Below, in pieces: positions 14,808 through 57,767 of a stretch of DNA of 64,000 bases. Origin of the DNA: a virus; the IMG/VR virus record IMGVR_UViG_3300037851_000102, positions 1 to 64,000 of that record, one strand, 5' to 3'. The translations under genes and the position numbers were made by a program. How positions within the stretch are numbered: position 1 is the stretch's first letter; each line of letters begins with the position of its first letter. The notes under the pieces were generated by a model. It was not told the DNA's origin. It did no database searches and was given only the letters and a program-made list of their open reading frames with translations.

Positions 14808-15147
14808 TCTTCCTTCGTGAAATCCATTTATTCTCAAAAACATCGTAATCACCGCTCTGAAGTCGAAGGATTGGCGGGGAGAGAACCTTATCTTGGATCG
14901 CCTTCTCATAAAGAGACAGAAGGGCCAGAAGTTCCATCGACTCCATCTCTCTTTGGTTTTCGGCATTCAACGATTCGTGAATTTTTAAAATTCCGTGCGC
15001 GATAAAACCACGGATTGAAATTTCATCGCCATCTTTCAATTTGATTCTGTAAAACCGAAATTGATCGCCATCATTCTTGATAAAGCGGATCGTGTGAATT
15101 CCGTTTTCGATTGGGATTTGAATTTCTGGAACCTTGGCTCTTCTCAT
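14803..15147 (-). CDS. hypothetical protein
   Basis: Coupled ORF. Confidence 0.55.
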   Translation of the reverse strand: MRRAKVPEIQIPIENGIHTIRFIKNDGDQFRFYRIKLKDGDEISIRGFIAHGILKIHESLNAENQREMESMELLALLSLYEKAIQDKVLSPPILRLQSGDYDVFENKWISRRKT

Positions 15148-15329
15148 AATTTCTCCAGTGCTTCTTTGAGTTCAACCATTTCAGGATTTGCCAAATAATC
15201 GTCGCCCTTGTCAGTAACATAGGGACGGCTTCGATCTCCAGCCGCAAGGCCGCGCTCAACGAGAACCCTTCGACTCACGCCGAAGGGATTAGCTCGTTTA
15301 ATTTTTTGAAGATCTTCTTTTATGTTCAT
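15144..15329 (-). CDS. small protein with C-terminal tag variant (LKEALEKL)
   Basis: Coupled ORF; terminal motif. Confidence 0.55.
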   Translation of the reverse strand: MNIKEDLQKIKRANPFGVSRRVLVERGLAAGDRSRPYVTDKGDDYLANPEMVELKEALEKL

Positions 15330-16195
15330 AGTGATTCCAAAGATTTCATGAAATCACTTGGCTCAACGATTCCGCGCTCAACACGATCTTGAACTTCGCG
15401 AAGTGTAGTCATCACGTTATGAAGTTTTGCGTTGATCGCTCCAGCGCGAGCGCGAAGGTTTTCGCTGTGAATTTTGTACTTCTCAACAATGTCGGCAGCG
15501 CGAGCCATGTCGCCTTCAAGTTGACGCTTGGTGATCGAGCCGTCTTTGAATCGCTTATCGATGTCGGCCACAAGCGAAGCAATGTCGCCAGCGATGTCTT
15601 CAGAGATCGCAGTTGAAAGAGCCTCATGCGTTCCAGCGTTGTCAAAAATTGGAACCCTGTGAAGAGTGGCGGAAGCCTGAAACGCCGTGAACAGTGATTG
15701 CAATCGCTCAAGCATTTTGTCAAAACGCGCATCCACGAAATAGATTCCACCGCCATCGCGCATGGCGACTCCCCATCCTTCTTGGCGAACAATGCGAAGA
15801 ACCAATTGACGAAACTGATTTGAATCGATGGTCTTGGCCGCACGTCTGAACTCTTCTTGGATCAGCGCGTACAATCTTGAATCTGTGTCTTCTGCTCGCA
15901 CAGGAGAAATCACGCCGCTCTTCTTGTTGAGAACAAGGCCAAGCTCGCGATCAAGATTAAGCTCATCGCCTGAAACAACTTCGTTGAACACGGCAAATTT
16001 CACTTCATCGCCAGCGTCACCGAAGCGACGATACAATTTATCATCGCCGCGTGTGATCTTCTTGATTGCCTTGATGAGCGCAGACTTGTAATCGTTGCGC
16101 GGGACAAAGCGATCAAAGCCAAGATCGATGAGCGCATCTTTTGTTGTTTCGAGTTCGTTGATTGACCAGAAAATTAAATCACCTTTGCGTTGCAT
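15326..16195 (-). CDS. conserved phage protein (DUF6744-like, tentative) with C-terminal tag (FMKSLESL)
   Basis: GDLIFWSI start and GGIYFV motif; GGGCTAACAAGGAG leader at 16201-16214. Confidence 0.6.
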   Translation of the reverse strand: MQRKGDLIFWSINELETTKDALIDLGFDRFVPRNDYKSALIKAIKKITRGDDKLYRRFGDAGDEVKFAVFNEVVSGDELNLDRELGLVLNKKSGVISPVRAEDTDSRLYALIQEEFRRAAKTIDSNQFRQLVLRIVRQEGWGVAMRDGGGIYFVDARFDKMLERLQSLFTAFQASATLHRVPIFDNAGTHEALSTAISEDIAGDIASLVADIDKRFKDGSITKRQLEGDMARAADIVEKYKIHSENLRARAGAINAKLHNVMTTLREVQDRVERGIVEPSDFMKSLESL

Positions 16196-16214
16196 ATTTT
16201 CTCCTTGTTAGCCC

Positions 16215-16376
16215 TTAGTTCATCCACTTGGCGAAGCCGAGCTTCACCATTTGTGCATCTGTTAAAATTAAACCTCTGCCATCTGCAAGCCTCACAAGAT
16301 GAACCGTTTGGATTCCCTCTGTGACGCTCGTTCTAATCTTCCCATAGTTCCAACAAATATATTGAACCTTATTCAT
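16215..16376 (-). CDS. 53-aa hypothetical protein (not in ORF track)
   Basis: MNKVQYICW...AKWMN-stop fills the gap and overlaps the upstream stop. Confidence 0.5.
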   Translation of the reverse strand: MNKVQYICWNYGKIRTSVTEGIQTVHLVRLADGRGLILTDAQMVKLGFAKWMN

Positions 16377-16842
16377 TTGAACCGCCTACAGTCGGATGCT
16401 CATGAAAGTATGAACCATTGCCAGCGGGTTTTTGAATCGATGCAGGCGCTCTGAAGTCTGAACCAGTTGAACCGCCGCCAACATTGAAGATCGGATTCAC
16501 GTTGATCGATGGATTGACTGTGACTGTGTTGGTATTGGAAGCGCCGCCATTTTTGGAAGCCTCACGCTCAACTTGCGCCTTGTAATCGGCTGGACGGCCA
16601 GAGAAAACAACTTCGTTGTCTTCAAAAACGATCAAGCGTGGCTTTTGAGTTCCATCGAAATCGACAGCGTACTCGTAAAGCTCGCGATTGCCTTCAAACT
16701 TCTTCTCAGTTGGTTCGCCGAGAATGTCGATCACTTGTTCTTTGCTCATGCCTGCGTCGATCTTATTAAGATCTTTCAACTTCGGCATTGAAGAACACGC
16801 GCTTAGTGCCAGACCTAAAACTATTAAAATTAACTTGTTCAT
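16369..16842 (-). CDS. lipoprotein with SmpA/BamE-like domain
   Basis: Lipobox LSAC; GMSKEQVIDILGEP motif. Confidence 0.75.
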   Translation of the reverse strand: MNKLILIVLGLALSACSSMPKLKDLNKIDAGMSKEQVIDILGEPTEKKFEGNRELYEYAVDFDGTQKPRLIVFEDNEVVFSGRPADYKAQVEREASKNGGASNTNTVTVNPSINVNPIFNVGGGSTGSDFRAPASIQKPAGNGSYFHEHPTVGGSNE

Positions 16843-16848
16843 AATACA

Positions 16849-16897
16849 CTCCTTGTTAGCCTGAATACAGTGTATTCTAATGTACTATGAAAGTCAA
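16849..16897 (-). promoter_or_regulatory. repeated early promoter + leader, copy 5
   Basis: TTGACT-17-TACACT; GGCTAACAAGGAG. Confidence 0.8.
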
Positions 16898-16901
16898 CAG
16901 A

Positions 16902-17348
16902 TTATTTTTGTGTCTTATTTTGATACCCTGTGAAGCTCTTCCACAAATCAACCATTGTCCATCCAACGGGGACGGTGACAGCCATTTGGATCGGCCATCC
17001 CTTTTTTAAGCGATCACTTACTGTGTGGCGATTGCCGCCAATGCGATCTCCCCACTGAGAAAGCGTCAATCTCTCTCCGCCAAACTCGACGAACGTGTTC
17101 GATCTTCTATTGTTTGAATTTTCTTTTGGCGTTGCCCAACGACAATTTGATGGCTCGTAATCTCCATCGTTATTGATTCTATCAAGCTGATAATTTGGTG
17201 AAGGCTTCCTTCCCATGTCTGCAAGAAAGTTCTCAAACTTATTCCAACGCTTGCAAACCTTAATGCCTCTTTCTGAGTAGTATCCTTTCGATTTTACTCT
17301 CTGATTCATGCACATCCATGTGATGCGCTCTGGAGTGTTTTTATTCAT
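16902..17348 (-). CDS. HNH-type homing endonuclease-like protein
   Basis: RGIKVCKRW..FENFLADMG...LDRINNDGDYEPSNCRWAT..N..N. Confidence 0.8.
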   Translation of the reverse strand: MNKNTPERITWMCMNQRVKSKGYYSERGIKVCKRWNKFENFLADMGRKPSPNYQLDRINNDGDYEPSNCRWATPKENSNNRRSNTFVEFGGERLTLSQWGDRIGGNRHTVSDRLKKGWPIQMAVTVPVGWTMVDLWKSFTGYQNKTQK

Positions 17349-18324
17349 CTCTTCTCTTTCTGCTATTTCTTACTTTTGCCGCTCTCAGGTCGCTCCACAA
17401 TTTTTCAGAAGTACAATCCTTAGCATTAAGATCGTCTCGGAATCTATAAAAAGTTGGATGACGCAGCCTTCCCACGATATTGTCAGCCGATCTTTTTGAA
17501 TCTTGGATCTCTTGTGCAAAAATATCCACCACGCGCCCGATGTACTTCTTTGGATTTTTCGCGATATCGTGGCGAATTTTATCATCGAAACCAGATGCGA
17601 ATCCAATCTCGATCAATCGGCCTTCGTGATAAACAGAGAGAGCGATTGAACCGATTGAACCTTTATACTTGCCATCGCCCTCTTTAAAACCAGAAATCAC
17701 ACACGAAACATCATACGACTTCTTCCACTTGCTCCATCCAACGCCGTATGCCTGTCTGATATCTTTGACGATGATTCCTTCGCCGCCTGCGTTCACAATT
17801 TTATTGAAGAACCCTTCGAGATTCACAGTCACTTGTTCGATCACTGTGATATGTGGATTGTTCATGCGCGAAACGACTTCGATCAAAACTTTTCTGCGCT
17901 TCTCAAGTGGTAGCTTGCGGATGTCTTTGCCACGAAACGCTTTGATATCAAAAACGCGATACTTCAAAAGTCCTGAAGATTTTTGCTTGCGAACAGCTTC
18001 CGCAGGCGAAGAGTTCATCACAGAATTCGTGCCCAAGAAATTCTCGGCCACAATTTCGCCATCAAGAACAGTTCCATCAAGACCTTCGTACTCGATGCCT
18101 GTGATATGTGGGACGTTATCAGTGCGATCAACGTGTTTCAAATCAACAGTCGAAACTCTGCGCGAGAGAAGAGTGTTGCCACTTCTGCGCTCATAAGGAT
18201 CGCAAGCGATGTAAAGCACATATCTTGAGCCATCGATTTTTTCTTCAGCGACGTAGTACGGCTTATCAACAATGTCAGGAAGTTTGGCCGTGCATCTTGA
18301 AGGTGCGTACAATTCTGTTTTCAT
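17341..18324 (-). CDS. ATP-dependent DNA ligase
   Basis: KIDGSR adenylation motif, LDGEI, VFDI, EGIIVK, C-terminal OB domain with LRHPTFYRFRDD. Confidence 0.9.
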   Translation of the reverse strand: MKTELYAPSRCTAKLPDIVDKPYYVAEEKIDGSRYVLYIACDPYERRSGNTLLSRRVSTVDLKHVDRTDNVPHITGIEYEGLDGTVLDGEIVAENFLGTNSVMNSSPAEAVRKQKSSGLLKYRVFDIKAFRGKDIRKLPLEKRRKVLIEVVSRMNNPHITVIEQVTVNLEGFFNKIVNAGGEGIIVKDIRQAYGVGWSKWKKSYDVSCVISGFKEGDGKYKGSIGSIALSVYHEGRLIEIGFASGFDDKIRHDIAKNPKKYIGRVVDIFAQEIQDSKRSADNIVGRLRHPTFYRFRDDLNAKDCTSEKLWSDLRAAKVRNSRKRRDE

Positions 18325-18767
18325 AACTTCTTCAGTGCTTTGAGAAATTCTTGCTTCTCATCAAGCTCTGCCTTTCTGACTTCGCGTTTGATATCCATTC
18401 GAGCCGCTGCGCTAATACGCGCATCACGCTCAGGAATTCCAAAAGATTTCTCACGCGCAACGATGAACCCATCCTCAACTGAAATAATTGGCTCGCTCGC
18501 TCGACGATAGCCCTTGGCAAGTTTCTCTCTCACTCTCTTGATCGCTTCGTACTTGTCGAGACGTTGCTCGCCTTGTGGCGGTCTTCCGTTGCGTCCCCAA
18601 GTGACAACGTGTTCGCCTGTCTTGGTATCAATGCGAAGCTCATAAAACTTGTCAGAGCCGCCTTCGCTGTACTCGTAACGGCCAACAGTGGCCGCCGAGT
18701 CTGCATCGATTTCGAGCGCGTATGCTGCATCATGAATGTCTTCAAATCGCTTCTTTTTGATCGCCAT
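18321..18767 (-). CDS. WGR-domain protein with C-terminal tag (FLKALKKL)
   Basis: SDKFYEL...VTWGRNG...KLAKGYR. Confidence 0.8.
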   Translation of the reverse strand: MAIKKKRFEDIHDAAYALEIDADSAATVGRYEYSEGGSDKFYELRIDTKTGEHVVTWGRNGRPPQGEQRLDKYEAIKRVREKLAKGYRRASEPIISVEDGFIVAREKSFGIPERDARISAAARMDIKREVRKAELDEKQEFLKALKKL

Positions 18768-18768
18768 T

Positions 18769-19440
18769 TTACTCTCCTAAGATTGCATCCAAGTCGTCGT
18801 CAGCACTTTTTGATTTTGCAGATTTCGCCTTCGCTTTCGCAGCGGCAGCTTTCGCTTTCAAGAGTTTTGCCTCAACAACGCCTTGAGCATCCGAAGTCGT
18901 GAGCCCTTCTTTTTCGAGCTTGCGAATTTCTTTCTCTTCTTTGGCAATTGCAGATTTTTTTGGAGCCGCTTTTGGCTTTGGCGCAGATTCAGAGAAATTC
19001 TCTTCACACTTCGCTTTGAAATCGCCAGTCGCTTTGAAAGTGAAAGTCTGAGATGCAGATTTTTCTGCAACGCTATTGAAGACCGTGGTCGATAAAGTCT
19101 TCTCAAGCTCTTCAGCTTTGAACGTCGAAACGCACTGAAGAAGTTGATCGACTGTGATCGTGCCATCGTTCACAAGCTCCGCAAGTTTGTCCTTGTCGTA
19201 CTTGTAATTCGAGCGCGAAGAAAGAATGATCGAACCGTACTCGGTCTTGAACCCTTCGCCTTCAGTGATTTCGATGTCGTCACTCTTCTCAATGTAACCA
19301 AGAACTTCGGCCTTGCTCTCTTTGAAAAGATCATCGTACTTCGCAGAAAGAAACTGCTCAGTGAATGCCTTCAAAACCAGAGAATCAAACTCCGCTGGTA
19401 ACTCGACCGATTGCTTATCTGTTTTCTTCTTAATTGCCAT
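18769..19440 (-). CDS. hypothetical protein with Lys/Ala-rich tail
   Basis: RBS; KAKAAAAKAKAKSAKSK segment. Confidence 0.65.
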   Translation of the reverse strand: MAIKKKTDKQSVELPAEFDSLVLKAFTEQFLSAKYDDLFKESKAEVLGYIEKSDDIEITEGEGFKTEYGSIILSSRSNYKYDKDKLAELVNDGTITVDQLLQCVSTFKAEELEKTLSTTVFNSVAEKSASQTFTFKATGDFKAKCEENFSESAPKPKAAPKKSAIAKEEKEIRKLEKEGLTTSDAQGVVEAKLLKAKAAAAKAKAKSAKSKSADDDLDAILGE

Positions 19441-19603
19441 AAATGCTCCCTTCGTCTTCTAATTTTTGTAAACCCATTTCGATTGCTTCCAAGTGAGCAT
19501 CGGCATCTGCGGAAGCCTCAACGGATTCAAGCCAAGCCAAATAATCTGACTTGCATGATTCGCAGAGATCATCACACGAATGAACTTCTTTACATTTGCA
19601 CAT
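19430..19603 (-). CDS. 57-aa Cys-rich protein (not in ORF track)
   Basis: MCKCKEVHSCDDLCESC... starts directly after promoter copy 6 and its RBS. Confidence 0.55.
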   Translation of the reverse strand: MCKCKEVHSCDDLCESCKSDYLAWLESVEASADADAHLEAIEMGLQKLEDEGSIYGN

Positions 19604-19608
19604 TTGAA

Positions 19609-19658
19609 CTCCCTTGTTAGCCTGAATACAGTATAGTACAGCGTACTATCAAAGTCCA
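19609..19658 (-). promoter_or_regulatory. repeated early promoter + leader, copy 6
   Basis: TGGACT-17-TATACT; GGCTAACAAGGGAG. Confidence 0.75.
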
Positions 19659-19991
19659 CTAAAAACTTAAAGTCCATTTACCTCTGTAAAATTCGAGCTT
19701 TCGCGGAACCAAATTGAGACAGATCTGATCTGAGACATCGGTGTGTATTTCTTTCAAAAGAACCGTGACCGTCTTGGTCTCAAAGTCGTCGCGCTCATCA
19801 AGCTCAATTTCAAAAGTGATTTCTTGCTCAGGCACCGTGATGATGCAGGACTTGATTCCCCACTCGCGCATTTCAAATTCAACGCTCCACTTGAGCGTTA
19901 CCTTTTGTCGATAACAGCTTGAAGACTCTGACATCTCAGGAAGTCGGTCGATCAAATCAAGTTCAATGTTTGGTGTTGTGAATTCGTACAT
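19659..19991 (-). CDS. hypothetical protein
   Basis: RBS GGAG; coupled ORF. Confidence 0.6.
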   Translation of the reverse strand: MYEFTTPNIELDLIDRLPEMSESSSCYRQKVTLKWSVEFEMREWGIKSCIITVPEQEITFEIELDERDDFETKTVTVLLKEIHTDVSDQICLNLVPRKLEFYRGKWTLSF

Positions 19992-19992
19992 A

Positions 19993-20322
19993 TTATTCTC
20001 CTTCTTCCATCATGCGATCCTTCCAAGCATCGTAGGCAGCGTCAGCCGCACCTTCACAATAATCTTGATAAGCATCGTAGGCTCGTTCATGCGCAAGTTC
20101 TTCGGCTCGCTTTTCAATCTTTGCTTGCTCTTCTTTTGGGAAGTCTTCGAGCTTGCGCTCGCAATTGGCCGTGTTGTCGAAGATCGATTCGATCTCCCAA
20201 TTGTAATCATCTTCGCAATACGCAGTGACATCGACAGAGACTTCAATCTCGTTGCAAAGATCGTCAGTTGAAAAATGATCTGAATCGAATTTGAATTCGT
20301 ATGTTGACATATTATTCTCCAA
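19993..20322 (-). CDS. acidic hypothetical protein
   Basis: Very D/E-rich ORF with RBS. Confidence 0.6.
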   Translation of the reverse strand: MENNMSTYEFKFDSDHFSTDDLCNEIEVSVDVTAYCEDDYNWEIESIFDNTANCERKLEDFPKEEQAKIEKRAEELAHERAYDAYQDYCEGAADAAYDAWKDRMMEEGE

Positions 20323-20860
20323 TCGCTTTCAGAGCTTCAGAGAAACTCTTTGGTTGTTCGACTTCGCGGCCATAGACTTTTGCTATGGCCTTTTCAATCA
20401 CCGATTTTGGTGCAGGAGTTTGATCTGAATCATATTCAAGAGCGTCCGAAGCCTCATTGCGTGGAACGCCTTGAGCCTTGAGATCAGTAAAAATGCGAAC
20501 GAGATTGTGCCAGTGTTCGCGAGAAACACGCTCTTCAGCCGCAGGAGCAGGACGCTCAGATCGACAGCCATGATAAGAGCCATCGACGTTCAACAACTGC
20601 CAACGACCGCCTTCGCGTGTCCACTTCACTGATTCAGAGCCACAGTATTTACAAGTCGCCTTTTTGCGTGTGCCTGACTTCGACGTAGAAGTTGAAGCCA
20701 CAAAAGCAGGACGCGCTGGACGTGAAGAAGGATAGACAAGATCGGCCAATTGTTCAGCCGTGATCTCGCCATCGAAGCCTTCGTTGACTTCATAAGTATG
20801 CTCGATCTTCTCTTGAATTCGAGCGATACAGATTGCAAGTGCTTGGGTTTTCACTGACAT
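20312..20860 (-). CDS. zinc-ribbon protein with C-terminal tag variant (FSEALKAIGE)
   Basis: CKYCG...W...H.C; follows promoter copy 7. Confidence 0.65.
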   Translation of the reverse strand: MSVKTQALAICIARIQEKIEHTYEVNEGFDGEITAEQLADLVYPSSRPARPAFVASTSTSKSGTRKKATCKYCGSESVKWTREGGRWQLLNVDGSYHGCRSERPAPAAEERVSREHWHNLVRIFTDLKAQGVPRNEASDALEYDSDQTPAPKSVIEKAIAKVYGREVEQPKSFSEALKAIGE

Positions 20861-20866
20861 AGTATT

Positions 20867-20916
20867 CTCCTTGTTAGCCTGAATACAGTGTATTACAGTG
20901 TATTCTCAAAGTCAAG
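20867..20916 (-). promoter_or_regulatory. repeated early promoter + leader, copy 7
   Basis: TTGACT-17-TACACT; GGCTAACAAGGAG. Confidence 0.85.
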
Positions 20917-20932
20917 GAGAAATGAAATTGTC

Positions 20933-27064: not shown

Positions 27065-27610
27065 ATGCGTGTACTTAAAATTTATACAGATGGTTCTTGC
27101 TTCCCAAATCCAGGCAGAGGTGGATGGGCTTTTGTTGTTGTTGAGAACGATCAAAAGATCTCTCAACACGTTGGCGGAGAATCACACACAACAAATAATC
27201 GCATGGAGTACATGGCGCTCATTCAAGCCATTGAACTCTATGCAGATCACGGAAGACTTATCATTCACACGGATTCAATGCTTCTTGTGAATACCTACAA
27301 CCGATGGATTGGAGCGTGGGCGAATCGTGATTGGATGCGAAGAGAAGATGGCGAACTTGTAGAAATCAAAAATGTGGATCTTGTGAAACGCATTTATGAA
27401 CTTAAAAAACTTCACAAATCCAAAATCGCCGTTCACTGGATTAAGGGACACGCGGGCAATAAGTGGAATGAAATGGCTGACGTGATGGCTGTGAACGCTA
27501 AAAATGCTCAACCCTATGTCTATCGCCCAAAACCTGAGAAGCCAAAACCAGAATTTAAACCCGTCGTAAAACTTCGACGTAGAAGTTCCCATGTCGAAAA
27601 CAATTCCTGA
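27065..27610 (+). CDS. rnhA: ribonuclease HI
   Basis: IYTDGSC..NPG.GGW, TTNNRME, TDS, KNVDL, WIKGHAG..NE.AD. Confidence 0.92.
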   Translation: MRVLKIYTDGSCFPNPGRGGWAFVVVENDQKISQHVGGESHTTNNRMEYMALIQAIELYADHGRLIIHTDSMLLVNTYNRWIGAWANRDWMRREDGELVEIKNVDLVKRIYELKKLHKSKIAVHWIKGHAGNKWNEMADVMAVNAKNAQPYVYRPKPEKPKPEFKPVVKLRRRSSHVENNS

Positions 27611-28193
27611 GTTTGCAAAAGAACTCGCTAAAAAATTAGAACTCGAAATGATCGGCAAAGATCCAAAGCACAAAGATGCAACGATGCGATCTCTTTCAGA
27701 TATCGTTTCACGATCTGCAAAATCAGATTCAGATCTCACAGATGCCCTTGGTTACATCGCAGGAATGGATAACGATCTTTACTGGAAGCTCGATGATGAT
27801 TTCAAACCTGTCAGAGCCAAAAGAGATGAAGGCATCGCTGCACTTGAAGGCGATCAGCGAATCATGGCGAAAACAATTTGGAAGCAAGGCGTTACAGTTT
27901 CATCTGTTTTTTTGGCAATCGATCACTCGTTCAAAAAGGGCTCAGAGCCCATACTTTTTGAGACCATGATCTTTGATGATATGGGAATTCTTGGTGATGA
28001 ATTCAAAGATTGGCAAGAACGAAATTCAAGCCATGAAGGACTTATAAGCACACACTTCAAAGCTGTGAATCTCATTCGGCACAAGCTCGGCGAAGAGGCG
28101 ATGGAGCATTTTCTGAGAGAGAAGCCGAACGCGATCAATGCAGAGCAAATCGCCAGTGCCAAAGCATTTGCGACGGCGCTTAAAAACTTGTGA
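27591..28193 (+). CDS. conserved phage protein with C-terminal tag (FATALKNL)
   Basis: VSSVFLAIDHSF...PILFETMIF motif; terminal tag. Confidence 0.7.
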   Translation: MSKTIPEFAKELAKKLELEMIGKDPKHKDATMRSLSDIVSRSAKSDSDLTDALGYIAGMDNDLYWKLDDDFKPVRAKRDEGIAALEGDQRIMAKTIWKQGVTVSSVFLAIDHSFKKGSEPILFETMIFDDMGILGDEFKDWQERNSSHEGLISTHFKAVNLIRHKLGEEAMEHFLREKPNAINAEQIASAKAFATALKNL

Positions 28194-29085: not shown

Positions 29086-29088
29086 GAA

Positions 29089-35209: not shown

Positions 35210-35407
35210 ATGAAGGACTGCTCGAATTGCGGAGAAGAAATTCCAGAGAAGCGCGTGAAGGCAATGCCCAACACGGAGCTTTGTGTTTTCTGCCAAGAGA
35301 AACTTGAGAAGGCTGGCAAATTTCAAAGACACGTTATGGATGTTCAGCCAGTTATGAAGGCGGGAGAAGTCGATGAAATAAATTCGACAATAGTGAGGGC
35401 AAATTGA
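35210..35407 (+). CDS. DksA/TraR C4 zinc-finger protein
   Basis: CSNCGEEIPEKR.KAMP.TELCVFCQ. Confidence 0.85.
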   Translation: MKDCSNCGEEIPEKRVKAMPNTELCVFCQEKLEKAGKFQRHVMDVQPVMKAGEVDEINSTIVRAN

Positions 35408-45767: not shown

Positions 45768-46003
45768 GTTTAAGAGGGACATACATTGAAAAGTGTAAAC
45801 ACATTTTAAATTGGGCAGATGAGCATCCAGAGTTCGACGAAGGATTTATTAAGAGCGTTCTTTCGCAGATGGAGCATGGCAATCGTGAGCCCACAGATAA
45901 ACAGGCAAACGCAATCGACAACATTATTGGGCGATTCAAGATTGATCTTCCAGATCCAGAGATGGATGCGCGAAGATTTGAAATGGATTTGGAAGAGTTA
46001 TGA
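45764..46003 (+). CDS. small protein with C-terminal tag variant (FEMDLEEL)
   Basis: Coupled start (ATGA overlap). Confidence 0.6.
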   Translation: MSLRGTYIEKCKHILNWADEHPEFDEGFIKSVLSQMEHGNREPTDKQANAIDNIIGRFKIDLPDPEMDARRFEMDLEEL

Positions 46004-46796: not shown

Positions 46797-47315
46797 ATGA
46801 GTGACCAATTGCGAGATCAGCTTAATAACCTGACCAGCGGCATAGCAACTTCGATGGATATGAGCGAAATGCTTTCGTATTCAATTTGGGGAGCGGCGGT
46901 CACGACAACAAGAGCCTTTGAGAAAGTGACTCTCAGGGTGGACACCAACAGCAACAGGATATTCGTATCAGTTAAGCTGCGTTGGTGGGCGACGTTTGAA
47001 AAGTTTAAGAGGCTTCAGGATGCGTGGCTTTCACGGTGCGAGGATCGCGTGAAGGAGCATATTCCTGAAGGTTGGAAGGTTTTGGTTTATTACGAAAGGA
47101 GCAAGAAATGAAAGAGCAAATTCAGGCGATTGCAGAAGCAGTGGCGGCCTCAGAGGGCACACTCGATGTGAAATCAACGATCACAATGATGCTTGATGTG
47201 ATGGCGCTTCAAGCATCAAAGATTGAGGATCTTGAAAAAGGCCAACAAAGGATGCGAGAAGCGTTCTCAACAATCTCAAGTGGCGGCAAGATTCCAACAC
47301 AAATGGGTGGTAGCA

Positions 47316-47711
47316 ATGGCGGCTTCAGCATCGGGTAGGTTCGTTAGAAACGAAGAGTCCAAGAGAGTTTTCAAGAAGTGGATGAACCTAATCGACAATG
47401 GGGAGAAATACTACTTTGCCAAAGCTGCGGATCTCTTCAGTGATCTTCCAGCGCGTCATCAATCAGCATTCATAAAATACTTTGCTGATAAGGTGAACGT
47501 GAAGTTTTGGCTGGACAATTGGCACGATAGTACGCAGTATCGTGATGTATTACGTTCGATTCTGTTTTATTATTCTGGTCGCGAAAAAGCGAAAGATCCG
47601 AATAAGAAAGAGTTCAGAAATGAGCTTATGGAATTCATGAGGAGTGATGAGTTCAAATCTGGCGTAAAACATGAGGCAAAAGAATTTAAAGAAGGATTGG
47701 AAAGCTTATGA
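47316..47711 (+). CDS. hypothetical protein with C-terminal tag (FKEGLESL)
   Basis: Terminal motif; coupled to the next gene. Confidence 0.6.
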   Translation: MAASASGRFVRNEESKRVFKKWMNLIDNGEKYYFAKAADLFSDLPARHQSAFIKYFADKVNVKFWLDNWHDSTQYRDVLRSILFYYSGREKAKDPNKKEFRNELMEFMRSDEFKSGVKHEAKEFKEGLESL

Positions 47712-49918: not shown

Positions 49919-50230
49919 ATGGAATCCAAAATAAACGACGATAAGAGAAAACGACTCATGCGAGTGATGTTCGGGCCGATTGAGGTGCCCGCATGGGTCA
50001 TTAAACAGGTCTTCGAGAAACTTCCTGAAGATGCGGTCATGATTACGCATATTCACGATCCACAAAGATTGCAATGGGGATGGATTATTGCATCGATGGA
50101 ATTCCCAGTTGTGGAAGAGGGAGCAGTGTTACCGCCAGCGGTTGTATCGGTGGACGGAGTGAAGAAGACGGTTGAAATTACGAGACCAGTGACAGTGGAC
50201 TCATTTGAAGACGCATTGAAGGCACTATGA
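49919..50230 (+). CDS. tagged protein (FEDALKAL)
   Basis: Terminal motif. Confidence 0.6.
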   Translation: MESKINDDKRKRLMRVMFGPIEVPAWVIKQVFEKLPEDAVMITHIHDPQRLQWGWIIASMEFPVVEEGAVLPPAVVSVDGVKKTVEITRPVTVDSFEDALKAL

Positions 50231-50449
50231 GTGAGAATGAAACTGAAACAATAAAATTTCTGCGCGAGAAACTGGCTGAAGCGCAGGTTCAAAACGACAA
50301 ACTTCAAGCGGCACTTGAATCGGCGAAATCTGATATTAAAAACGCTACAAATCTAATTATCGACTTCATTGCGGAGTATTCCACGCCGAACAATTCACTG
50401 AAGACAGAGGACGCATTGGGCGGTCTCAAGAACTTCATAAGAGAGCGGT

Positions 50450-50725
50450 GTGATAGTGGATCCGAAAAACAAGCTGCGCCAAACGCTTGAACACGCGATA
50501 GAGCAAATCAACAGAGATCCGCATCTGGTTCGTTCACACACAGTTGATGCACTTGCAGAGCAAGTTGGGCTCAAACGACGACAAGGGGAGCCTGACAATG
50601 TTCTTTGGGCTCGAATTGAGGGCTCAGGTCGGCTTGATGATTTACGCAAAGAGCTTATGGATAAAATGAATTCGCTTGGCAATGATGAGGTACGAGACTT
50701 TGAATCAGCACTGAAAAACTTGTGA
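50450..50725 (+). CDS. tagged protein (FESALKNL)
   Basis: Terminal motif. Confidence 0.65.
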   Translation: MIVDPKNKLRQTLEHAIEQINRDPHLVRSHTVDALAEQVGLKRRQGEPDNVLWARIEGSGRLDDLRKELMDKMNSLGNDEVRDFESALKNL

Positions 50726-50731
50726 GGATGT

Positions 50732-51049
50732 ATGAAGCTGAGGGCGAGAAGCAAATTAGAGGATTCAAAAGAGGTTGAACTTTCAATGGAATCACTCGGC
50801 AAATTGTTGGCGGATGGTCTGAATGGAGTCTTCGAGAAGATCCACACAGATGATTGGAAGAAGTTTTCGTTGAAACTTGAATTCTATGCCAAAACAGATA
50901 GCAACGGCGTGTCAATTGCAAATCTTACATTATCTGAAACGACAAGTGGAGAGAAACCCGCTAACATTAAAAAAGCAGGGAAGCGGGTTGAGGGCTCCAC
51001 GGACGGGGCCGCTATTGTTGATTTTCTTGAGGGCTTGAAAAAGCTATGA
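50732..51049 (+). CDS. tagged protein (FLEGLKKL)
   Basis: Terminal motif; RBS GAGG. Confidence 0.65.
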   Translation: MKLRARSKLEDSKEVELSMESLGKLLADGLNGVFEKIHTDDWKKFSLKLEFYAKTDSNGVSIANLTLSETTSGEKPANIKKAGKRVEGSTDGAAIVDFLEGLKKL

Positions 51050-51450
51050 GTGAATCGGTGAAGCGGCCTTTGTTGATGGTTAAGCCCGAACTCGTTGCAA
51101 TGATCGACGATTGGGAGCGCATACGCGGCTCGAAGAGCGATGTAGAGCGCAGAAGACGGGAGCAAGAAGAGATTGCGAAGCTGCCCGTTTTAGATAGGCT
51201 CAAGCGCGAAATTTCAATTGGTGACAGAATAAAATTCGTCACAGCACAGAAGAACCGCAAAGCCGCGCTCGACAAGGAGTATGAGGTCTTATCAAAGCGG
51301 CGATACTGCACGAATCATGATGGTGGAGAGGTTGCGATCCTTTGTGATGATGGGAAGATTCGCGGATACTCGACCAGAAAAGTTGAAGTTATCAATCCAC
51401 AAAAACTCAGCGAAATAGAGCAGTTTTCAAACGCATTGGAGCTTTTATGA
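51046..51450 (+). CDS. tagged protein (FSNALELL)
   Basis: Terminal motif; coupled. Confidence 0.65.
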   Translation: MSESVKRPLLMVKPELVAMIDDWERIRGSKSDVERRRREQEEIAKLPVLDRLKREISIGDRIKFVTAQKNRKAALDKEYEVLSKRRYCTNHDGGEVAILCDDGKIRGYSTRKVEVINPQKLSEIEQFSNALELL

Positions 51451-51794
51451 GCGAAACCATGCGGATGTTCACGCTTTATGTGGTGGAGAAGGAGACTGGA
51501 GAGCGGATTGCGATCCGTCCAGGTCTCATTTTTGAAGAAGAGCCAACAGCGGGAATCGCAAATCGTTTCACGATCAAGGCACTGAACACAGAGAAGCGCG
51601 AAGTGATTATTGAAGCACACGCATTCAAATCAGAGGTCACAGAATCGTGGGACAAGTTCGTTAAAATGGTCGCAGATGGCGAGTTAAAGCTCGTTAATTC
51701 AGAGAATGTGATCCGCGAGATGCGAGAGGCAAGAGAGCAGGGCAAGAGCGAGCAATCGGCCAAGGATTTTGAGGATGCGCTTAAAAATTTATAG
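51447..51794 (+). CDS. tagged protein (FEDALKNL)
   Basis: Terminal motif; coupled. Confidence 0.65.
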   Translation: MSETMRMFTLYVVEKETGERIAIRPGLIFEEEPTAGIANRFTIKALNTEKREVIIEAHAFKSEVTESWDKFVKMVADGELKLVNSENVIREMREAREQGKSEQSAKDFEDALKNL

Positions 51795-51803
51795 GGGACA
51801 GCG

Positions 51804-52280
51804 ATGTTTGATGAGTACAAGACAAGAGTGATGGGCAAGTTTGAAGAGCCAGAGATATCACACAGAGATATTGACAGGCTTGCAGAGTATTTCATACGTC
51901 GATCATTAAGATACTACGCAGGCGGTGGAGCCAGACACGTTGGCGGTGCGAGAATGCCAATGGAGTTCTACCGAGATCTTGCAAAGCAGGTGATTGAGCT
52001 TGCCTATAAATTTCACGGCGACAAATCGCATTCACTCAAGTCACTCGTTGCAATCATAATCGGGCCCGAAATCGAAAAGATCTTTTCACCCGATCCAAGA
52101 GAGGCGCGTCCACCTCAAGCAATCCTTGATGAGACCGATGAGAAGTTTTGGAAGATGATGGAAGAGCCAATGCTCACGAAAAAAGACATAGAATCCTTTA
52201 CAGAGAATGATTTTAAGCCAAAGAAGCCAAGGCCAAAGACAGAGATAGAAGAGTTCAACAAGGCACTTAAAAAGCTATGA
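51804..52280 (+). CDS. tagged protein (FNKALKKL)
   Basis: Terminal motif; GGGGACAGC leader. Confidence 0.65.
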   Translation: MFDEYKTRVMGKFEEPEISHRDIDRLAEYFIRRSLRYYAGGGARHVGGARMPMEFYRDLAKQVIELAYKFHGDKSHSLKSLVAIIIGPEIEKIFSPDPREARPPQAILDETDEKFWKMMEEPMLTKKDIESFTENDFKPKKPRPKTEIEEFNKALKKL

Positions 52281-52579
52281 GCAAGCTCCCAAAGACCCGA
52301 TCAATTTACGATGTCGATAGGCTCACTTCAAGCTCAGAGATAAAGCTCGACGGCAGGACAATCGGCACAATCACAGATATCAGAATCGAAGACGGCACAG
52401 CCCACGTCGAAGCGACAATCACACCGCCAAAGCCCATTGAATCAATCACCTTTGAAGGCACAATCACAGGCTTTGAATCCATTGAAGAGATCCCAAAACC
52501 GAAATCCAAACGCCTCAGACACACACCAAAAGAGAAATCAGAAATTGAAGCATTTGAAGAGGCACTCAAAAACCTATGA
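52277..52579 (+). CDS. tagged protein (FEEALKNL)
   Basis: Terminal motif; coupled. Confidence 0.65.
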   Translation: MSKLPKTRSIYDVDRLTSSSEIKLDGRTIGTITDIRIEDGTAHVEATITPPKPIESITFEGTITGFESIEEIPKPKSKRLRHTPKEKSEIEAFEEALKNL

Positions 52580-52902
52580 AGCCAGAAGGAATCACAATCA
52601 CACAGTATATGCTTCCCGAAGGCCCAATACACTTTGATACGGCCTCAGCCGAACAGCTCGATAGAATCGGAGAGCTACACGCAATCAGAAGAGACGACGG
52701 AGAGCCAGACGCAAGTTACAGATCCAAGCTATTAAAGGCACTTCATTCAAGAACGTCATACATGACCACAGATGAAGTGAAACAGTTCTTCGATCCCGAC
52801 ACAGGCAAAGAGTTCGTACAGATAGACCCAAACGAAATTCAAGCCAAAATCCAACACACGCAACAAGTCCAAGACTTTTTGACGGCGCTCGACAAGCTCT
52901 AA
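52576..52902 (+). CDS. tagged protein (FLTALDKL)
   Basis: Terminal motif; LDRIG...R..GEPD.SYR segment. Confidence 0.65.
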   Translation: MKPEGITITQYMLPEGPIHFDTASAEQLDRIGELHAIRRDDGEPDASYRSKLLKALHSRTSYMTTDEVKQFFDPDTGKEFVQIDPNEIQAKIQHTQQVQDFLTALDKL

Positions 52903-53003
52903 AACAAACGCTCGACCAACATACTACAATGTAATACATTCAATTCCGTAGTCAGGGAGAATCTAATGTATTCGCCGATACAGACACCATTGGAGTAACA
53001 ACA

Positions 53004-53834
53004 GTGAGTAAATGGAAGCCCAGAAGAGATTTTAAAGCAGTAACAGATAAGCGCACTTCAAAGAAGTCGGCTTCAAAACAATCAGATCCAACACCACAAG
53101 AGTTCCAAAGAGACCTCGAAGATTTAGACGTGCCAGATTTATTTGAAAAGGGCACAAGAATCTTGAAGCGTGACATGGGTGGAGCAGACAAGCTCAAGCA
53201 CGATGGTCACATTCTTATGATGGAGTGGGCGATTAAGTATTCAGACATGATACCGCGCAAATTCTTAATGGAGCGCAGAGGTTATTCACACGCACAAGCA
53301 GACGTGATTTTAGCGGTCACAGGTTCAACGTCAGAATGGGCGAATGCGCGAGAGCGCGTACTTGATTCAATGAGTGAATCAGTTATCAAGCGGCACATTG
53401 ATAAGCTCGTTGAAGTGAACGATCAGCACATAGCGGCCTCAAAGCTCACGATGGCAAAAGCGATTGAGATGCTCACGAAATTGCCCGTGGATGTGGAATT
53501 AGATCCAAAGACAGGCAAATCAAAGAAGCGCACTATGAGATCAATTGATCTTGTGAATTGCGCAAACGCGATTGAGAAGGCGCAATCGATCTATCGAAAG
53601 GCGATGGGCTTGCCAAACGAAGAGTCAGGTCTTGCGCAGATCTTGGAGAAGGTCGCGCAATTAAACGTGCAACAAAATGTTCAGATCAACAACACGGTTG
53701 TCCAGCAACAGCCTGAGAAGAGTGAGCAACAGAAGAAGATAGAGGCATTAAGCTATGATGACATTATGGAGTTCGTTGAATTTAGAAGAGAGCAGAAGAG
53801 ACTCGCGCAACAGCCAAAGGACACTGGATCTTGA
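53004..53834 (+). CDS. possible terminase small subunit
   Basis: HTH-like region then long helices and a Q/N-rich beta tail; located upstream of terL. Confidence 0.4.
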   Translation: MSKWKPRRDFKAVTDKRTSKKSASKQSDPTPQEFQRDLEDLDVPDLFEKGTRILKRDMGGADKLKHDGHILMMEWAIKYSDMIPRKFLMERRGYSHAQADVILAVTGSTSEWANARERVLDSMSESVIKRHIDKLVEVNDQHIAASKLTMAKAIEMLTKLPVDVELDPKTGKSKKRTMRSIDLVNCANAIEKAQSIYRKAMGLPNEESGLAQILEKVAQLNVQQNVQINNTVVQQQPEKSEQQKKIEALSYDDIMEFVEFRREQKRLAQQPKDTGS

Positions 53835-53872
53835 GCGATTGTATGCGTATGGGGCAGAGGGTGAGGTTTTAG

Positions 53873-54112
53873 ATGTCACACATGATGGGTCAACAGAAGG
53901 CTCGGATGAGGGAAGAGAACAGGAATTGGCAGGAGAGAGATCGGGAGAACTTGAGCGGGAGAGCTTTGCGTAGGGAGCAGGAGCGCAAGGTCGCTGCATG
54001 GAATAGAGAGCAGGCGCGACTACGATCCGAAGAAGAGATTAGAGAACGGGCGCGGGAGCGAGAGCGATTGGTTTCGATTGAACGGTTCCAAGACGCGCTG
54101 GAGAACTTATGA
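53873..54112 (+). CDS. R/E-rich tagged protein (FQDALENL)
   Basis: Terminal motif; RBS GAGG. Confidence 0.6.
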   Translation: MSHMMGQQKARMREENRNWQERDRENLSGRALRREQERKVAAWNREQARLRSEEEIRERARERERLVSIERFQDALENL

Positions 54113-54454
54113 AGGATTTAATCAATTTTACGTTCGCGCTTATCGCATTTGTCGCACTATTCCTTGTGCTTCCATTCGTGGTCTATAGCATCAACAAGTA
54201 TGTTCACCATGATCGCATCGAACAGATGATTGAATCAAAGGTAAAGGCGGAGTGTTTACGATGAGTGAGCTTTTAGGATTCGCAGAGAGAAACCCAATAC
54301 TCGCAGTGATCTTGGCTTATATCATCGTGCAGGGCTTGGTTTATATGATCCAAGCGATTAGGAGATGAGCGATTGGGAGTGGATACTTTTGATCGCGATG
54401 CCATTGATTGTAATGATCGCGATGAGTTTAGTTTTATGTAATTATTTTTGTTAG
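54109..54454 (+). CDS. three coupled small single-TM peptides (54109-54264, 54261-54368, 54365-54454)
   Basis: ATGA overlaps; each has one hydrophobic helix; below the ORF-track cutoff. Confidence 0.55.
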
Positions 54455-56452
54455 GAGATGAAGTGAAGCCAGAGCAAGTTTCAAACGATGTACTTGAGTT
54501 TTTAAAAAATAAATATGGCGATGAGATCAACATTGAATCATTGAGGCTTGGTCTTGGTCTCACAGTTTCAGCGATTCATGCAACGCTGATTCATTCGGCC
54601 AAAACAGATGATGAACGACAAGGGGCAGTTCACACAGCGATGGACACGGTGGAGCGCATGATTGGTTCGATCCAAAAAGATTGCGAAATTTGTGGAATGC
54701 CTGGAATTGAATTCGTTAAGGGTATTGTGGATGAGAACGGCAACATGGTTGAAACTAAACAGGGGGAGAACGATGAAGGTCGGGTTCATTGATTTAGCAG
54801 AGAACGCATTCAAGATTGAAAAACAGATTGAACACGCGCTTAGAGATCGTTGGCTGGATGGAGACACAGCACACGAATTCAAAAACGAAATGTATAAGCG
54901 CAGAAAACAAAAGGGTGGATTGAAAGCCCTACTGAAAGAGATCAACACAGAGATTGAATTCAGAAAGAAAACATTCGGGGGGATGGATGAGACAATTAAA
55001 CAAAAGGCAAATAGAGTTAATACTGCCGTCTGATATCACACTTGATATGCTCTATTCAGCGATGCACGAGGGGTTTTTGAATCACACACTCAAGACCAGC
55101 ATCGATGGCAAACCTTTTCATTTGGGAATTGAAATGGTCAGTGGGAATTCAGAGATCCAAACGATTTTGGTCACGAAGATTCCAGCGCACCACAAACAAG
55201 GAGCAAACAATGAAACAGGGGAGCAATAATATGGGGACATTCGCATTTTTAATGTTTTGCGCAGCGATATTCGCAGCGATGGGCATTTGGCATTATTCAC
55301 AATCAGAGGACACGGCCTTTCACAAGACGCTCGGCCTATGTCGATCATGTGAAGCAGATGTAAAGCGCCACGAAGAGAAGTTAAAGAAGTATGATGAGGA
55401 TTTTAAAGCGTTGAATGCGCGATTGGATGCAGCGGAAGCGGAAGTAAAGAAATTCACTGAACAGCTTGATATATTCCGCGATCAGGTCTCAGACACACGC
55501 GAGAAGCAGATCCAACTCAAGGATGATTTATCGAATAAGACTCAGCGATTGGTGATGCCAAAGGGCCCGATTCCAGTTGAGATCTATGTAGCACCAACGG
55601 TCAGAGCCACAGCACCGAAACAGCAAGCACCGCCTAAGATTCCAAAAGAGACACCACAGCAAACCATGAAGAAGATCAAAAAGCAGATCGATGGGTTATC
55701 GAAATGAAGATCCAAAGAATGCTCGAATACTTGAAGACGCTTGCGAAGATGAAGCGAAATTTCTTTGGTGAGCTTGCAGATGAAGCGAAATCAGAAATTG
55801 ATAAGGCGAGACTTCAGGGCATGGCAGATGCCCACGCCGAACAGACAAACGAGCTTGAGCAGATCAGTGCGGCCATGATCGAAACGCCAGATCAGATGCC
55901 ACAGCAAACCGAGAGCGCACCGATAGGAGTAACACTACAATGAAGCAAGACGTGAATACGCAAAAGGCGAAATTCAATAAATTGTATAAAGAGATGGCCG
56001 AGATCGTTAATACTTTCGATGGGCACAACAGAGATCTTGCTATGCAGGGTCTCAGTAGTTGTGACTTGTGGGCAAATTCGTATTTTACAAAAGAAGGAGC
56101 GAACGATGGAACGAGAGAAGAGACTATTCAACGGTCAGCCGATTGAACTTGGACAGCAACGAGAGAAGCCAGCGGGGTTGATTCTGCCCGATCAGGATTT
56201 AAAGAAGCTGCATGAAGATCAACTCAAGGCAGAAGCAGAGAAGCGAGCGGCAGAAGAGAAGCGCGTATTCGATCAGATGGTTGAGAGCCCACAGGCGATG
56301 CGGGGAGTGATCCAAGAGTGCATCAATCGTGGCAAGGTCAGATTGAGTATGGATTTGGATTTACTTGATGATGAACAGGTGAAAAAGACTTTCATTCATT
56401 TGTGGGGTCAAGCGGGAGCAGGCAAGCCGAGCGTTACCGAAATCAGTATTTA

Positions 56453-56722
56453 ATGGGATGCTCATCTTGCGGTGGGGGAATTAAGAAGCCCACGAAGTTC
56501 CAACAGGTGAGATCCTTCGCATTAAGTCTTGCCAACGTGATTGAACACGCGATATCCACAGGACAGATCGTTGCAGATCGTGGGACAGTGGATAAGCGCA
56601 TTCAGATATGTACTCAATGCAAATACAGAGAGCCCATTAGAAACCGCTGCAAGGCTTGTGGTTGTTTCTTGGCAGCTAAGAGTGGCCTTGCCAGCGAAAC
56701 GTGCCCACAGGGGTATTGGTGA
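56453..56722 (+). CDS. Cys-rich protein (DUF6171-like)
   Basis: R..IC..C......C..CGCFL..K......CP.G.W. Confidence 0.65.
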   Translation: MGCSSCGGGIKKPTKFQQVRSFALSLANVIEHAISTGQIVADRGTVDKRIQICTQCKYREPIRNRCKACGCFLAAKSGLASETCPQGYW

Positions 56723-56728
56723 GGTTAT

Positions 56729-57055
56729 ATGGGGCATTTACCAACATTAGAGAGTGACGCAAGCGGGAGAGTGAGAATCACATGGCCTGATGGACGCAGG
56801 TCAGAGGGACATATCACCAAAATGAATGTTCAGATGGGGAGAGGTTCGCTTGGTGAGCATACTCAAACGCTGGACTTCACTTTGACGTGCTTTGAGCCCA
56901 TGCTATCCGAAGAAGCCAGCACAATGAAGGCGGCAGCGGATGAAGCGAACAAAAGAGTCAGAGAAAATAAAGCCAAAAAAGAAGGCGTTAAAAAGATGGA
57001 AGAAGACCGTCTCAAGCCAGTCAGAGACTTCATCAAAGGCCTCGAACAGTTTTAG
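56729..57055 (+). CDS. tagged protein variant (FIKGLEQF)
   Basis: Terminal motif; RBS GAGG. Confidence 0.6.
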   Translation: MGHLPTLESDASGRVRITWPDGRRSEGHITKMNVQMGRGSLGEHTQTLDFTLTCFEPMLSEEASTMKAAADEANKRVRENKAKKEGVKKMEEDRLKPVRDFIKGLEQF

Positions 57056-57494
57056 CGACGAAGAGCGCCAGTATCAGATCAAAAGGTTCTTAAAAGATTC
57101 AAAGGGTGCGAAAGTATGGAAGTCGTAGTCTGCGGCTTTCATTTTAATTTAATCACGATTCGTTGCCACAACAAGAAGTGCAAGAACAAGTTCAAAGTTC
57201 TTGAGAGTTCAAAGCAGAAGTTTTGCTCATCTCACTGCGCAGGCATTGAATTGCCATTGCCCAACTACAACTACACTCAGCGAGTCCAGAAGATGAAAAC
57301 GATGAAAGAGACGATCATCGACTTCTACAAGGATTCCGAAGACGACTACGGCGCGTAGTTTAAAACAAATAAAATAGCTCATTGATTCAAGACTCCAACG
57401 TGTTCAAGATGGGACTGCAATGGTTCTATCCGATTAAGGTCTTGCAACGAGAAGATGCGGGACGTGACCGCCGCGCCGCCTGAAGAGGAGATTT

Positions 57495-57767
57495 ATGGCT
57501 CGATCCAAGAAAAAAGAATTACGCGCAGAAAGTTCTCAAGACCTGGCGACACCTGGGCCCGAAATCGCGAACGTGGATTTTTCTAAACCGTGGACTTTGG
57601 ATCGCCAAGCCTATGACAAAGTGGCGTTTGCCGAGCTGGTCATGAAGCTCAAAACTTCTACGTCGAAGCTGGAATATCATCCAGACGGGAAGGTGACATT
57701 CCATTGGAAGGGAATGGCTAAATCCGCAGAATCACAGAGCTTTTCAAAAGCATTGGAGAATTTATGA
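57495..57767 (+). CDS. tagged protein (FSKALENL)
   Basis: Terminal motif; RBS GAGGAG. Confidence 0.65.
   Translation: MARSKKKELRAESSQDLATPGPEIANVDFSKPWTLDRQAYDKVAFAELVMKLKTSTSKLEYHPDGKVTFHWKGMAKSAESQSFSKALENL

Follow-up and report, generated by a model that had tools for sequence, protein, structure and literature searches.

The DNA analysed was a window of 64,000 nucleotides (positions 1 to 64,000 of the IMG/VR record IMGVR_UViG_3300037851_000102) from the 110,388-bp genome of an uncultured freshwater phage. About twenty unrelated, mostly small proteins of this phage end in the C-terminal motif F-x-x-[AG]-L-[KED]-x-L or a near match, referred to below as the tag. No near-identical phage was found among cultured phages, and the closest cultured phages share about 30% protein identity. 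No RNA holder was listed among the sequencing runs.

On the minus strand, the tag carriers are as follows: a WGR-domain protein ending F-L-K-A-L-K-K-L (18321-18767, exact tag), a DUF6744 protein ending D-F-M-K-S-L-E-S-L (15326-16195, near tag), a 61-aa protein ending L-K-E-A-L-E-K-L (15144-15329, near tag, Leu in place of Phe) and a 182-aa protein ending F-S-E-A-L-K-A-I-G-E (20312-20860, tag plus two residues), whose orthologue in the related genome G001 ends F-S-E-A-L-R-K-I. The same arm carries a CobS-like MoxR AAA+ ATPase (12248-13357, Pfam AAA_5 and CbbQ_C) and a CobT-like protein (10388-12184) with an N domain containing HExxH...E, an acidic linker and a vWA domain with an invariant D-x-S-x-S motif. 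Seven copies of one sigma-70-like early promoter were found between 9863 and 20892 (minus strand), before g9839, CobT, CobS, the deacetylase, the BamE-like operon (which holds DUF6744 and the 61-aa carrier), g19603 and the carrier at 20312-20860. Five of these sites, and the DUF6744 gene (which has no promoter copy of its own), also carry the exact leader GGCTAACAAGGAG.

On the plus strand, exact tags end a 200-aa protein after the RNase H gene (27591-28193, F-A-T-A-L-K-N-L), a protein with an uncertain start codon (47223-47711, F-K-E-G-L-E-S-L), a 79-aa Arg/Glu-rich protein (53873-54112, F-Q-D-A-L-E-N-L) and a 90-aa protein (57495-57767, F-S-K-A-L-E-N-L). A cassette of eight small genes (49919-52902), abutting the late region, carries exact tags throughout: 49919-50230, 50450-50725, 50732-51049, 51046-51450, 51447-51794, 51804-52280, 52277-52579 and 52576-52902, most of them joined by ATGA overlaps. 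Near tags end a 113-aa protein (32814-33155, F-V-K-A-L-E-A-L-R, tag plus one residue), a 108-aa protein (56729-57055, F-I-K-G-L-E-Q-F) and a possible 93-aa ORF (45722-46003, F-E-M-D-L-E-E-L), whose gene call is uncertain because it overlaps neighbouring ORFs. One further carrier lies outside the window, at genome positions 66251-66529 (F-L-A-A-L-N-K-L). All carriers but one lie in the replication arms, interleaved with primase, helicase, ligase, RNase H, SSB, RecA and SbcCD genes.

The tag had first been noticed in a sequence-only reading, which listed 13 exact carriers and six near matches, and this observation was confirmed and proved larger than first described. In the six-frame translation of the whole genome, the motif had 15 hits, 13 of them exactly before a stop codon. 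Amino acid composition predicts 0.0014 C-terminal hits in 160 ORFs, and 2000 within-protein shuffles gave at most 1. The carrier bodies showed no BLASTP similarity to each other (all E>0.2) or to any other protein of the phage (E<=0.01), so the idea that tagged proteins are fragments of virion proteins has no BLASTP support. Codons at the fixed positions vary: L5 is CTG/CTT/TTG/CTC, L8 is TTA/TTG/CTA/CTC and A4 is GCA/GCG. A homologue search with the carrier at 27591-28193 returned only itself, and Foldseek comparison of the DUF6744 model with the PDB found no match. In that model, the tail is a separate, low-confidence helix (residues 279-287, pLDDT 54-63) after a loop.

All 15 orthologues of the DUF6744 carrier, down to 36% identity, end at the same residue in D-F-x-x-L-x-x-[LI]-COOH, with F282 and L286 invariant. 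Four related phage genomes or fragments and one metagenome locus (L078) carry genome-specific variants of the tag, on orthologues and on unrelated cassette genes alike: F-x-x-x-L-[RK]-x-[IL] in G001, [FI]-[ILM]-x-E-L-x-x-[LI] on 11 ORFs in G004, F-x-[DE]-x-[LI]-K-D-L on about 9 in G010, and three in L078. G010 has a cassette of about 9 tagged genes at the same place, just before the late genes. A distant cultured relative, Rhizobium phage RHEph10, has a different shared tail (N-P-x-F-G-R-F-COOH) on seven proteins. The WGR orthologues in G001, G004 and RHEph10 carry each lineage's own tag. In G007, H-E-S tails looked like a second example, but the four carriers are weakly related to each other (E 8e-6 and 5e-4) and may be paralogues. 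In a de novo tail screen of 40 metagenome loci around cobS, tags were found only in low-GC phage-like loci (L078, perhaps L052), and the high-GC loci, taken to be bacterial, had none.

The sequence-only reading had stated that core enzymes and virion proteins lack the tag, and this requires one correction, which is also a new finding. The gp32-like SSB (39927-40880, plus strand; Pfam gp32) has a hypervariable linker of about 90 residues followed by a tail reading L-E-E-E-L-R-S-L-G-V-E, that is, the tag core plus G-V-E. The tail, Φ-x-x-E-L-[RK]-x-L-G-Φ, is conserved in four lineages (E310, L311, L314 and G315 invariant), although these lineages are related and count as roughly one observation. 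The core Φ-x-x-x-L-x-x-L is shared with the tags, but the SSB adds a G-Φ-(E) extension that the exact tags lack, and its first position is Leu in three of the four lineages. Among near-terminal matches to a tag PSSM, the SSB tail ranked first in G004, second of 68 in G010 and fourth of 139 in genome G000, behind two tag variants, with modest scores (2.0 to 5.9 bits). The RHEph10 SSB ends exactly in V-L-A-D-L-D-S-I, the best exact-terminal match among 803 ORFs. An AF2 model of the SSB made with four sequences (linker 214-303 disordered, tail helix 303-313) was too poor, at pLDDT 53, to show any docking of the tail on the core. An acidic 278-aa protein between the polymerase and SSB genes (39081-39917, plus strand) ends in a weak near tag, F-M-N-K-F-E-E-I-N-K-K, and the protein at the same position in G009 ends exactly in N-F-L-T-S-L-E-K-L.

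The interpretation first offered, in which a terminal helix docks many proteins onto one hub (a capsid-loading signal, a tail for an AAA+ protease, or a recognition signal for the MoxR AAA+/vWA pair), was partly supported. Protein-level selection for a terminal helix used as a common docking signal is well supported; capsid loading has no support, the MoxR/vWA pair remains a candidate, and the SSB tail, which had been missed, points instead to the receptor of that tail. The tag is therefore read, tentatively, as a short amphipathic C-terminal helix with hydrophobic positions 1, 5 and 8 and usually a small residue at 4, which would hang on a flexible linker and act as a docking peptide of the same kind as the SSB tail. 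In this view, the SSB tail and the tagged proteins would bind the same phage-encoded receptor surface in the replication and recombination machinery, either the SSB core itself or enzymes that read the SSB tail, and about 20 fast-evolving small proteins (a WGR nick sensor, DUF6744, zinc-ribbon and orphan proteins) would thereby be brought to replication forks or SSB-coated DNA. What the analysis demonstrates is the enrichment, the selection at the protein level, the conservation in orthologues, the genome-specific variants and the core shared with the SSB tail, whereas docking itself, the receptor and the site of action are inferences. Besides the differences from the SSB tail given above, the tags are not strongly acidic, unlike classical SSB tails, and in RHEph10 the main shared tail differs from that phage's SSB tail, so that tag and SSB tail are not coupled everywhere.

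The main rival, which is possible but less likely, is that the reader is the phage's own CobS/CobT-like machine: the tag would plug into the MoxR AAA+ ring or into the adaptor with its zincin-like N domain and vWA/MIDAS domain, so that tagged proteins would be remodelled, assembled or processed as one client set. CobS, CobT, the neighbouring deacetylase and operons holding three carriers each have a copy of the early promoter, and the gene order DUF6744 - deacetylase - CobS - CobT is kept in G000, G001 and G004, although this holds only for the minus-strand arm and the plus-strand cassette has a different promoter. The MIDAS D-x-S-x-S (D409, S411 and S413 invariant) and the HExxH...E motif are conserved in 61 homologues. 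The C-terminal helix of RHEph10 CobT is the top near-terminal match to the tag PSSM. Viral cobST has no demonstrated function (PMC8651126). Conversely, three CobS/CobT-bearing phages (G005, G006 and G008) showed no shared tail in a crude screen, the presence of HExxH in CobT does not track tags, and this model does not explain why the SSB tail carries the same core. A broader and doubtful reading, which is not excluded, is that a whole family of DnaE/cobST-type phages, including RHEph10, runs an evolvable address-label system, in which one phage-encoded reader, possibly CobS/CobT, would recognise a lineage-specific C-terminal peptide on 5-15% of the proteome, SSB included, and would recruit, remodel or process these proteins as one set. 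This would give viral cobST genes a protein-handling function instead of a role in vitamin B12 synthesis.

A C-terminal degron or tethering tail for a host AAA+ protease (ClpXP, ClpAP, Lon or FtsH), giving early proteins a common, timed turnover, is unlikely. The tag lies strictly at the C-terminus and ends in a non-polar residue, the carriers are early or middle accessory proteins, A-L-[KR]-x-[LV] is loosely similar to the SspB tail that binds ClpX, and in RHEph10, 21 of 151 proteins end in A-A, the ssrA-like ending. However, host degron readers are highly conserved, yet the tag differs between close relatives (G000, G004 and G010), which fits a co-evolving phage-encoded reader better. The tags end [KED]-x-L, none ends in A-A, and they match neither the L-A-A nor the L-R-V-V-K-like SspB consensus. 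SSB, which is needed throughout replication, carries the same core.

Loading of cargo into the capsid for ejection into the next host, as scaffold-like or encapsulin-like terminal peptides do, is very unlikely. Terminal helices are used for docking to capsids in other systems and the plus-strand cassette abuts the late region, but 19 of 20 carriers lie in the replication arms, several behind the early promoter, no virion protein scanned carries the tag, and the SSB carries the core. A membrane-targeting amphipathic helix of the MinD or FtsA type is still less likely, because the tag, although amphipathic and at the extreme C-terminus, has only three or four hydrophobic residues, and many tags are neutral or acidic, often with an acidic residue before the Phe, which is unfavourable on anionic bacterial membranes. 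An origin as a by-product of gene ends (translational coupling, purine-rich ribosome-binding sites inside the last codons, or recent duplication of a DNA segment) is in substance refuted: 10 of 13 exact tags end in xTA-TGA, which holds the next gene's ATG, and positions 6 and 7 use purine-rich codons, but this does not explain Phe1, Ala4 and Leu5, Leu codons vary, untagged coupled genes end differently, orthologues at 36% identity keep the residues, and tags also occur where no gene overlaps.

If one reader exists, its identification would assign a cellular address, and so a first functional clue, to dozens of otherwise unannotatable phage genes at once, would offer a portable tag for sending proteins to phage replication sites, and may bear on what viral cobST genes do. 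RHEph10 and its host Rhizobium etli CFN42 are cultured, so that an analogous shared tail is accessible at the bench.

No description of this tag was found in the papers searched, but related systems are known. In MoxR AAA+/vWA pairs, a partner's hydrophobic C-terminus or last helices make the key contact: the last residues of NorD are essential for binding NorQ (PMC13036017), and the last two helices of CobN lie next to the CobT MIDAS (bioRxiv 10.64898/2026.07.21.739949). There, the contact belongs to one fixed partner, not to a set of about 20 putative clients, and no cobN or cobalamin gene context was seen here. In the C-terminal tails of single-stranded-DNA-binding proteins (E. coli SSB-Ct, T7 gp2.5, T4 gp32 A-domain), a conserved terminal peptide follows a long disordered linker, recruits many partners, and is recognised in part through its free C-terminus. 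In those systems one tail meets many readers, whereas here many proteins carry the tail, and the tags end in Leu or Ile rather than Phe.

In phage T4, gp43, gp33 and gp55 share a short hydrophobic, partly acidic peptide at the extreme C-terminus, joined by a variable flexible linker, interchangeable between proteins and read by one hub, the sliding clamp (PMC2988020). The tag resembles this arrangement in being a short hydrophobic/acidic peptide at the extreme C-terminus, behind a variable linker, on unrelated proteins. It has no Gln and a different spacing from the known clamp-binding consensus sequences (Q-L-[SD]-L-F, PIP box, T4 type), being helical in prediction with spacing 1-5-8. No clamp (gp45, beta or PCNA type) or loader family appeared in Pfam or PHROGs scans of about 70 proteins, and phmmer searches of three unknown proteins against the PDB found nothing, although a very divergent clamp or use of the host clamp is not excluded. 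Shared terminal docking peptides are known in phages for two or three proteins (T4 clamp binders, T7 acidic tails); here, about one gene in eight (roughly 12%) carries the label, mostly orphan accessory genes arranged in exchangeable cassettes, and its sequence drifts between related phages on all carriers together.

The window is the first 64 kb of a single virus record of 110,388 bp from a freshwater metagenome. The genome has two divergent replication arms. The minus-strand arm (9-26 kb) encodes a CobT-like vWA protein, a CobS-like MoxR AAA+ ATPase, a deacetylase-like protein, DNA ligase, primase, a DnaB-like helicase, a sigma factor and a UvsW-like helicase. The plus-strand arm (27-58 kb) encodes RNase H, a DnaE-type polymerase (35404-38616, +), a gp32-like SSB, RecA, SbcCD, RecU and a ParB-like protein, and is followed by the terminase, the portal and a myovirus-type virion module. 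No sliding-clamp, clamp-loader or tau subunit gene was detected in the genome, and the same holds for the annotation of Rhizobium phage RHEph10. The nearest cultured phages share only about 30% protein identity.

The shared C-terminal motif described in the sequence-only reading was confirmed. For the whole genome, F-x-x-[AG]-L-[KED]-x-L was found 15 times in all six frames, and 13 of these occurrences were immediately followed by a stop codon. Composition predicts 0.0014 such endings among 160 ORFs, and 2000 within-protein shuffles never gave more than one. A position-specific score matrix built from the 13 exact tags recovered the near matches listed in the sequence-only reading and identified one further carrier outside the window (genome 66251-66529), bringing the total to about 20 carriers. 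When the last 12 residues were removed, no two carriers were similar by BLASTP (best E 0.2) and none was similar to any other protein of the phage, virion proteins included. Only two carriers have Pfam domains (WGR and DUF6744). Codons at the fixed residues vary freely. In the region 49919-57767, 10 of the 13 exact tags end in xTA-TGA, so that the last Leu codon and the stop contain the ATG of the next gene, and 11 of the 13 stops are TGA. Translational coupling may therefore favour the last codon, but it cannot account for Phe1, Ala4 and Leu5.

Selection keeps the tag, and the tag drifts by lineage. For the DUF6744 carrier, 15 orthologues (down to 36% identity) were compared: all stop at the same residue, the Phe and the first Leu are invariant, and the last residue is Leu in 14 and Ile in one. 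In the AlphaFold model of this family (pLDDT 87), the tag was predicted as a separate nine-residue helix after a loop (pLDDT 54-63), as expected of a peptide that waits for a partner.

Related virus records carry their own versions of the tag: F-x-x-x-L-[RK]-x-[IL] on at least seven proteins of G001 (polymerase 62% identical), [FI]-[ILM]-x-E-L-x-x-[LI] on eleven proteins of G004 (complete, 115 kb), and F-x-[DE]-x-[LI]-K-D-L on about nine genes of G010, in a cassette at the same place as the 49.9-57.8 kb cassette of the present genome, just before the late genes. Three tags were found in the metagenome locus L078, in which the CobS-like ATPase is the C-terminal part of a 662-aa ORF (8255-10243) that may be a fusion with the upstream gene. 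The orthologous carriers (WGR, DUF6744 and the 182-aa protein) keep the tag in the dialect of each lineage, whereas the cassette genes are not homologous between genomes and yet carry the local tag. The DUF6744 and CobS hits point to roughly 15 related contigs (up to 119 kb). Such joint change in many unrelated proteins points to one co-evolving reader, and the speed of the drift argues, by inference, for a phage-encoded reader rather than a conserved host hub. The interpretation given in the sequence-only reading, that a terminal helix docks many proteins onto one hub, was supported in part.

Rhizobium phage RHEph10 (NC_034248), a distant relative cultured on R. etli CFN42, has the same module order (helicase-primase-WGR-ligase, and CobT-CobS-sigma-DnaE-SSB-RecA-SbcCD) and the same logic with another tag. 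Seven of its mostly unrelated proteins, including the WGR orthologue, end in [NH]-P-x-[FY]-G-[RM]-F-COOH; seven of the eight six-frame occurrences of the last four residues are terminal, and only one pair of carriers is weakly related. In addition, 21 of 151 annotated RHEph10 proteins end in A-A, against about 1.5 expected at 10% Ala. These include the ligase, sigma factor, RecA, the SbcC-like exonuclease, dUTPase, rIIA, ParA, ParB and the UvsW-like helicase, but none of the 19 virion-module proteins. This phage also encodes an HslV-like peptidase.

The gp32-like SSB of the present genome carries the core of the tag and ends in L-E-E-E-L-R-S-L-G-V-E. Its relatives end in L-N-A-E-L-K-A-L-G-I-E (G004), L-E-D-E-L-R-R-L-G-V (G009, a further related genome) and F-E-K-E-L-R-E-L-G-M (G010), and these tails follow a linker of about 90 residues that cannot be aligned. 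The SSBs were scored with the tag matrix of their own genome, allowing one to four extra residues: the SSB was the best non-exact match among all ORFs in G004, second of 68 in G010 and fourth of 139 in the present genome, behind two obvious tag variants. The RHEph10 SSB ends exactly in V-L-A-D-L-D-S-I, the best exact-terminal match of 803 ORFs to the family matrix. Because the lineages are related, these results amount to about one observation, with a chance probability of the order of 1 in 100.

A second class of tail may exist: six proteins end in G-E (0.8 expected), namely those at window 18769-19440 (-), 19993-20322 (-), 20312-20860 (-), 28699-29085 (+) and 41055-42065 (+) and at genome 66784-67158, with RecA among them, and the SSB ends in G-V-E. 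The protein at 18769-19440 (-) has 223 aa, a Lys/Ala-rich linker and the acidic tail D-D-D-L-D-A-I-L-G-E, and gave no family match. Proteins with matching tails ([DE]-L-[DES]-x-I-L plus 2-3 residues) lie in G001, where a BLAST-confirmed orthologue was found, and in the loci L052, L066, L078 and L102, where they were assigned by tail and position only.

In E. coli, T7 and T4, the SSB tail is the handle by which replication, recombination and repair proteins are recruited. Phage T4 shows that several proteins can share one terminal peptide for one hub (PMC2988020). A reading is therefore tentatively favoured in which the tag and the SSB tail would use the same receptor in the replication and recombination machinery, the SSB core itself being one possible receptor. 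The terminal enrichment, the conservation in orthologues, the lineage-specific variants and the core shared with the SSB tail were observed in the sequences, whereas docking, the identity of the receptor and its encoding by the phage are inferred.

The main rival reader, a possible but less favoured one, is the CobS/CobT-like pair. CobS, CobT, the deacetylase gene and three operons that contain carriers each have a copy of one early promoter (TTGACT ... TACACTGTATTCA), which has an internal palindrome and occurs in seven copies on the minus strand of window 9863-20892. Five of these sites, and the DUF6744 gene (which has no promoter copy), also carry the exact leader GGCTAACAAGGAG; a sixth site has a copy with two mismatches, and one reversed near-copy of the leader lies at 10032-10044. 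The order DUF6744 - deacetylase - CobS - CobT is conserved in three genomes. The CobT-like adaptor (window 10388-12184, -) keeps an intact MIDAS and, in its N domain, which resembles an M48 peptidase, an HExxH...E motif: H61-E62-x-x-H65 and E90/D91/E95 are at least 90% conserved in 61 homologues, and the solved CobT aligns only from residue 85 onward. Recent structures show that in this family the hydrophobic C-terminus or last helices of a partner make the decisive contact (PMC13036017; bioRxiv 10.64898/2026.07.21.739949). Hijacking of host CobN has been put forward for viral cobST as a hypothesis (PMC8651126). Against this rival, three other cobST phages showed no shared tail in a crude screen, the presence of HExxH does not track tags, and the model does not explain the SSB tail. 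In G007 (IMGVR_UViG_3300020034_000036), four adjacent small proteins near a CobS/vWA pair (5068-7266) end in [KRV]-H-E-S, but they are weakly related to each other and may be paralogues. A 167-aa protein next to CobS in the same record (2324-2827) shares a 50-residue stretch (36% identity, E 3e-8) with the tagged protein at window 27591-28193, but has no tag. A degron for a host protease, capsid loading, membrane targeting and a gene-end artefact are each less likely.

Full-text literature searches returned no description of this tag, and the cultured relative makes the system testable. The principle of a shared terminal peptide for one hub is known. Four aspects are new here: the scale (about 12% of genes), the cassette organisation on orphan genes, the lineage-specific drift across a phage family, and the core shared with the SSB tail.
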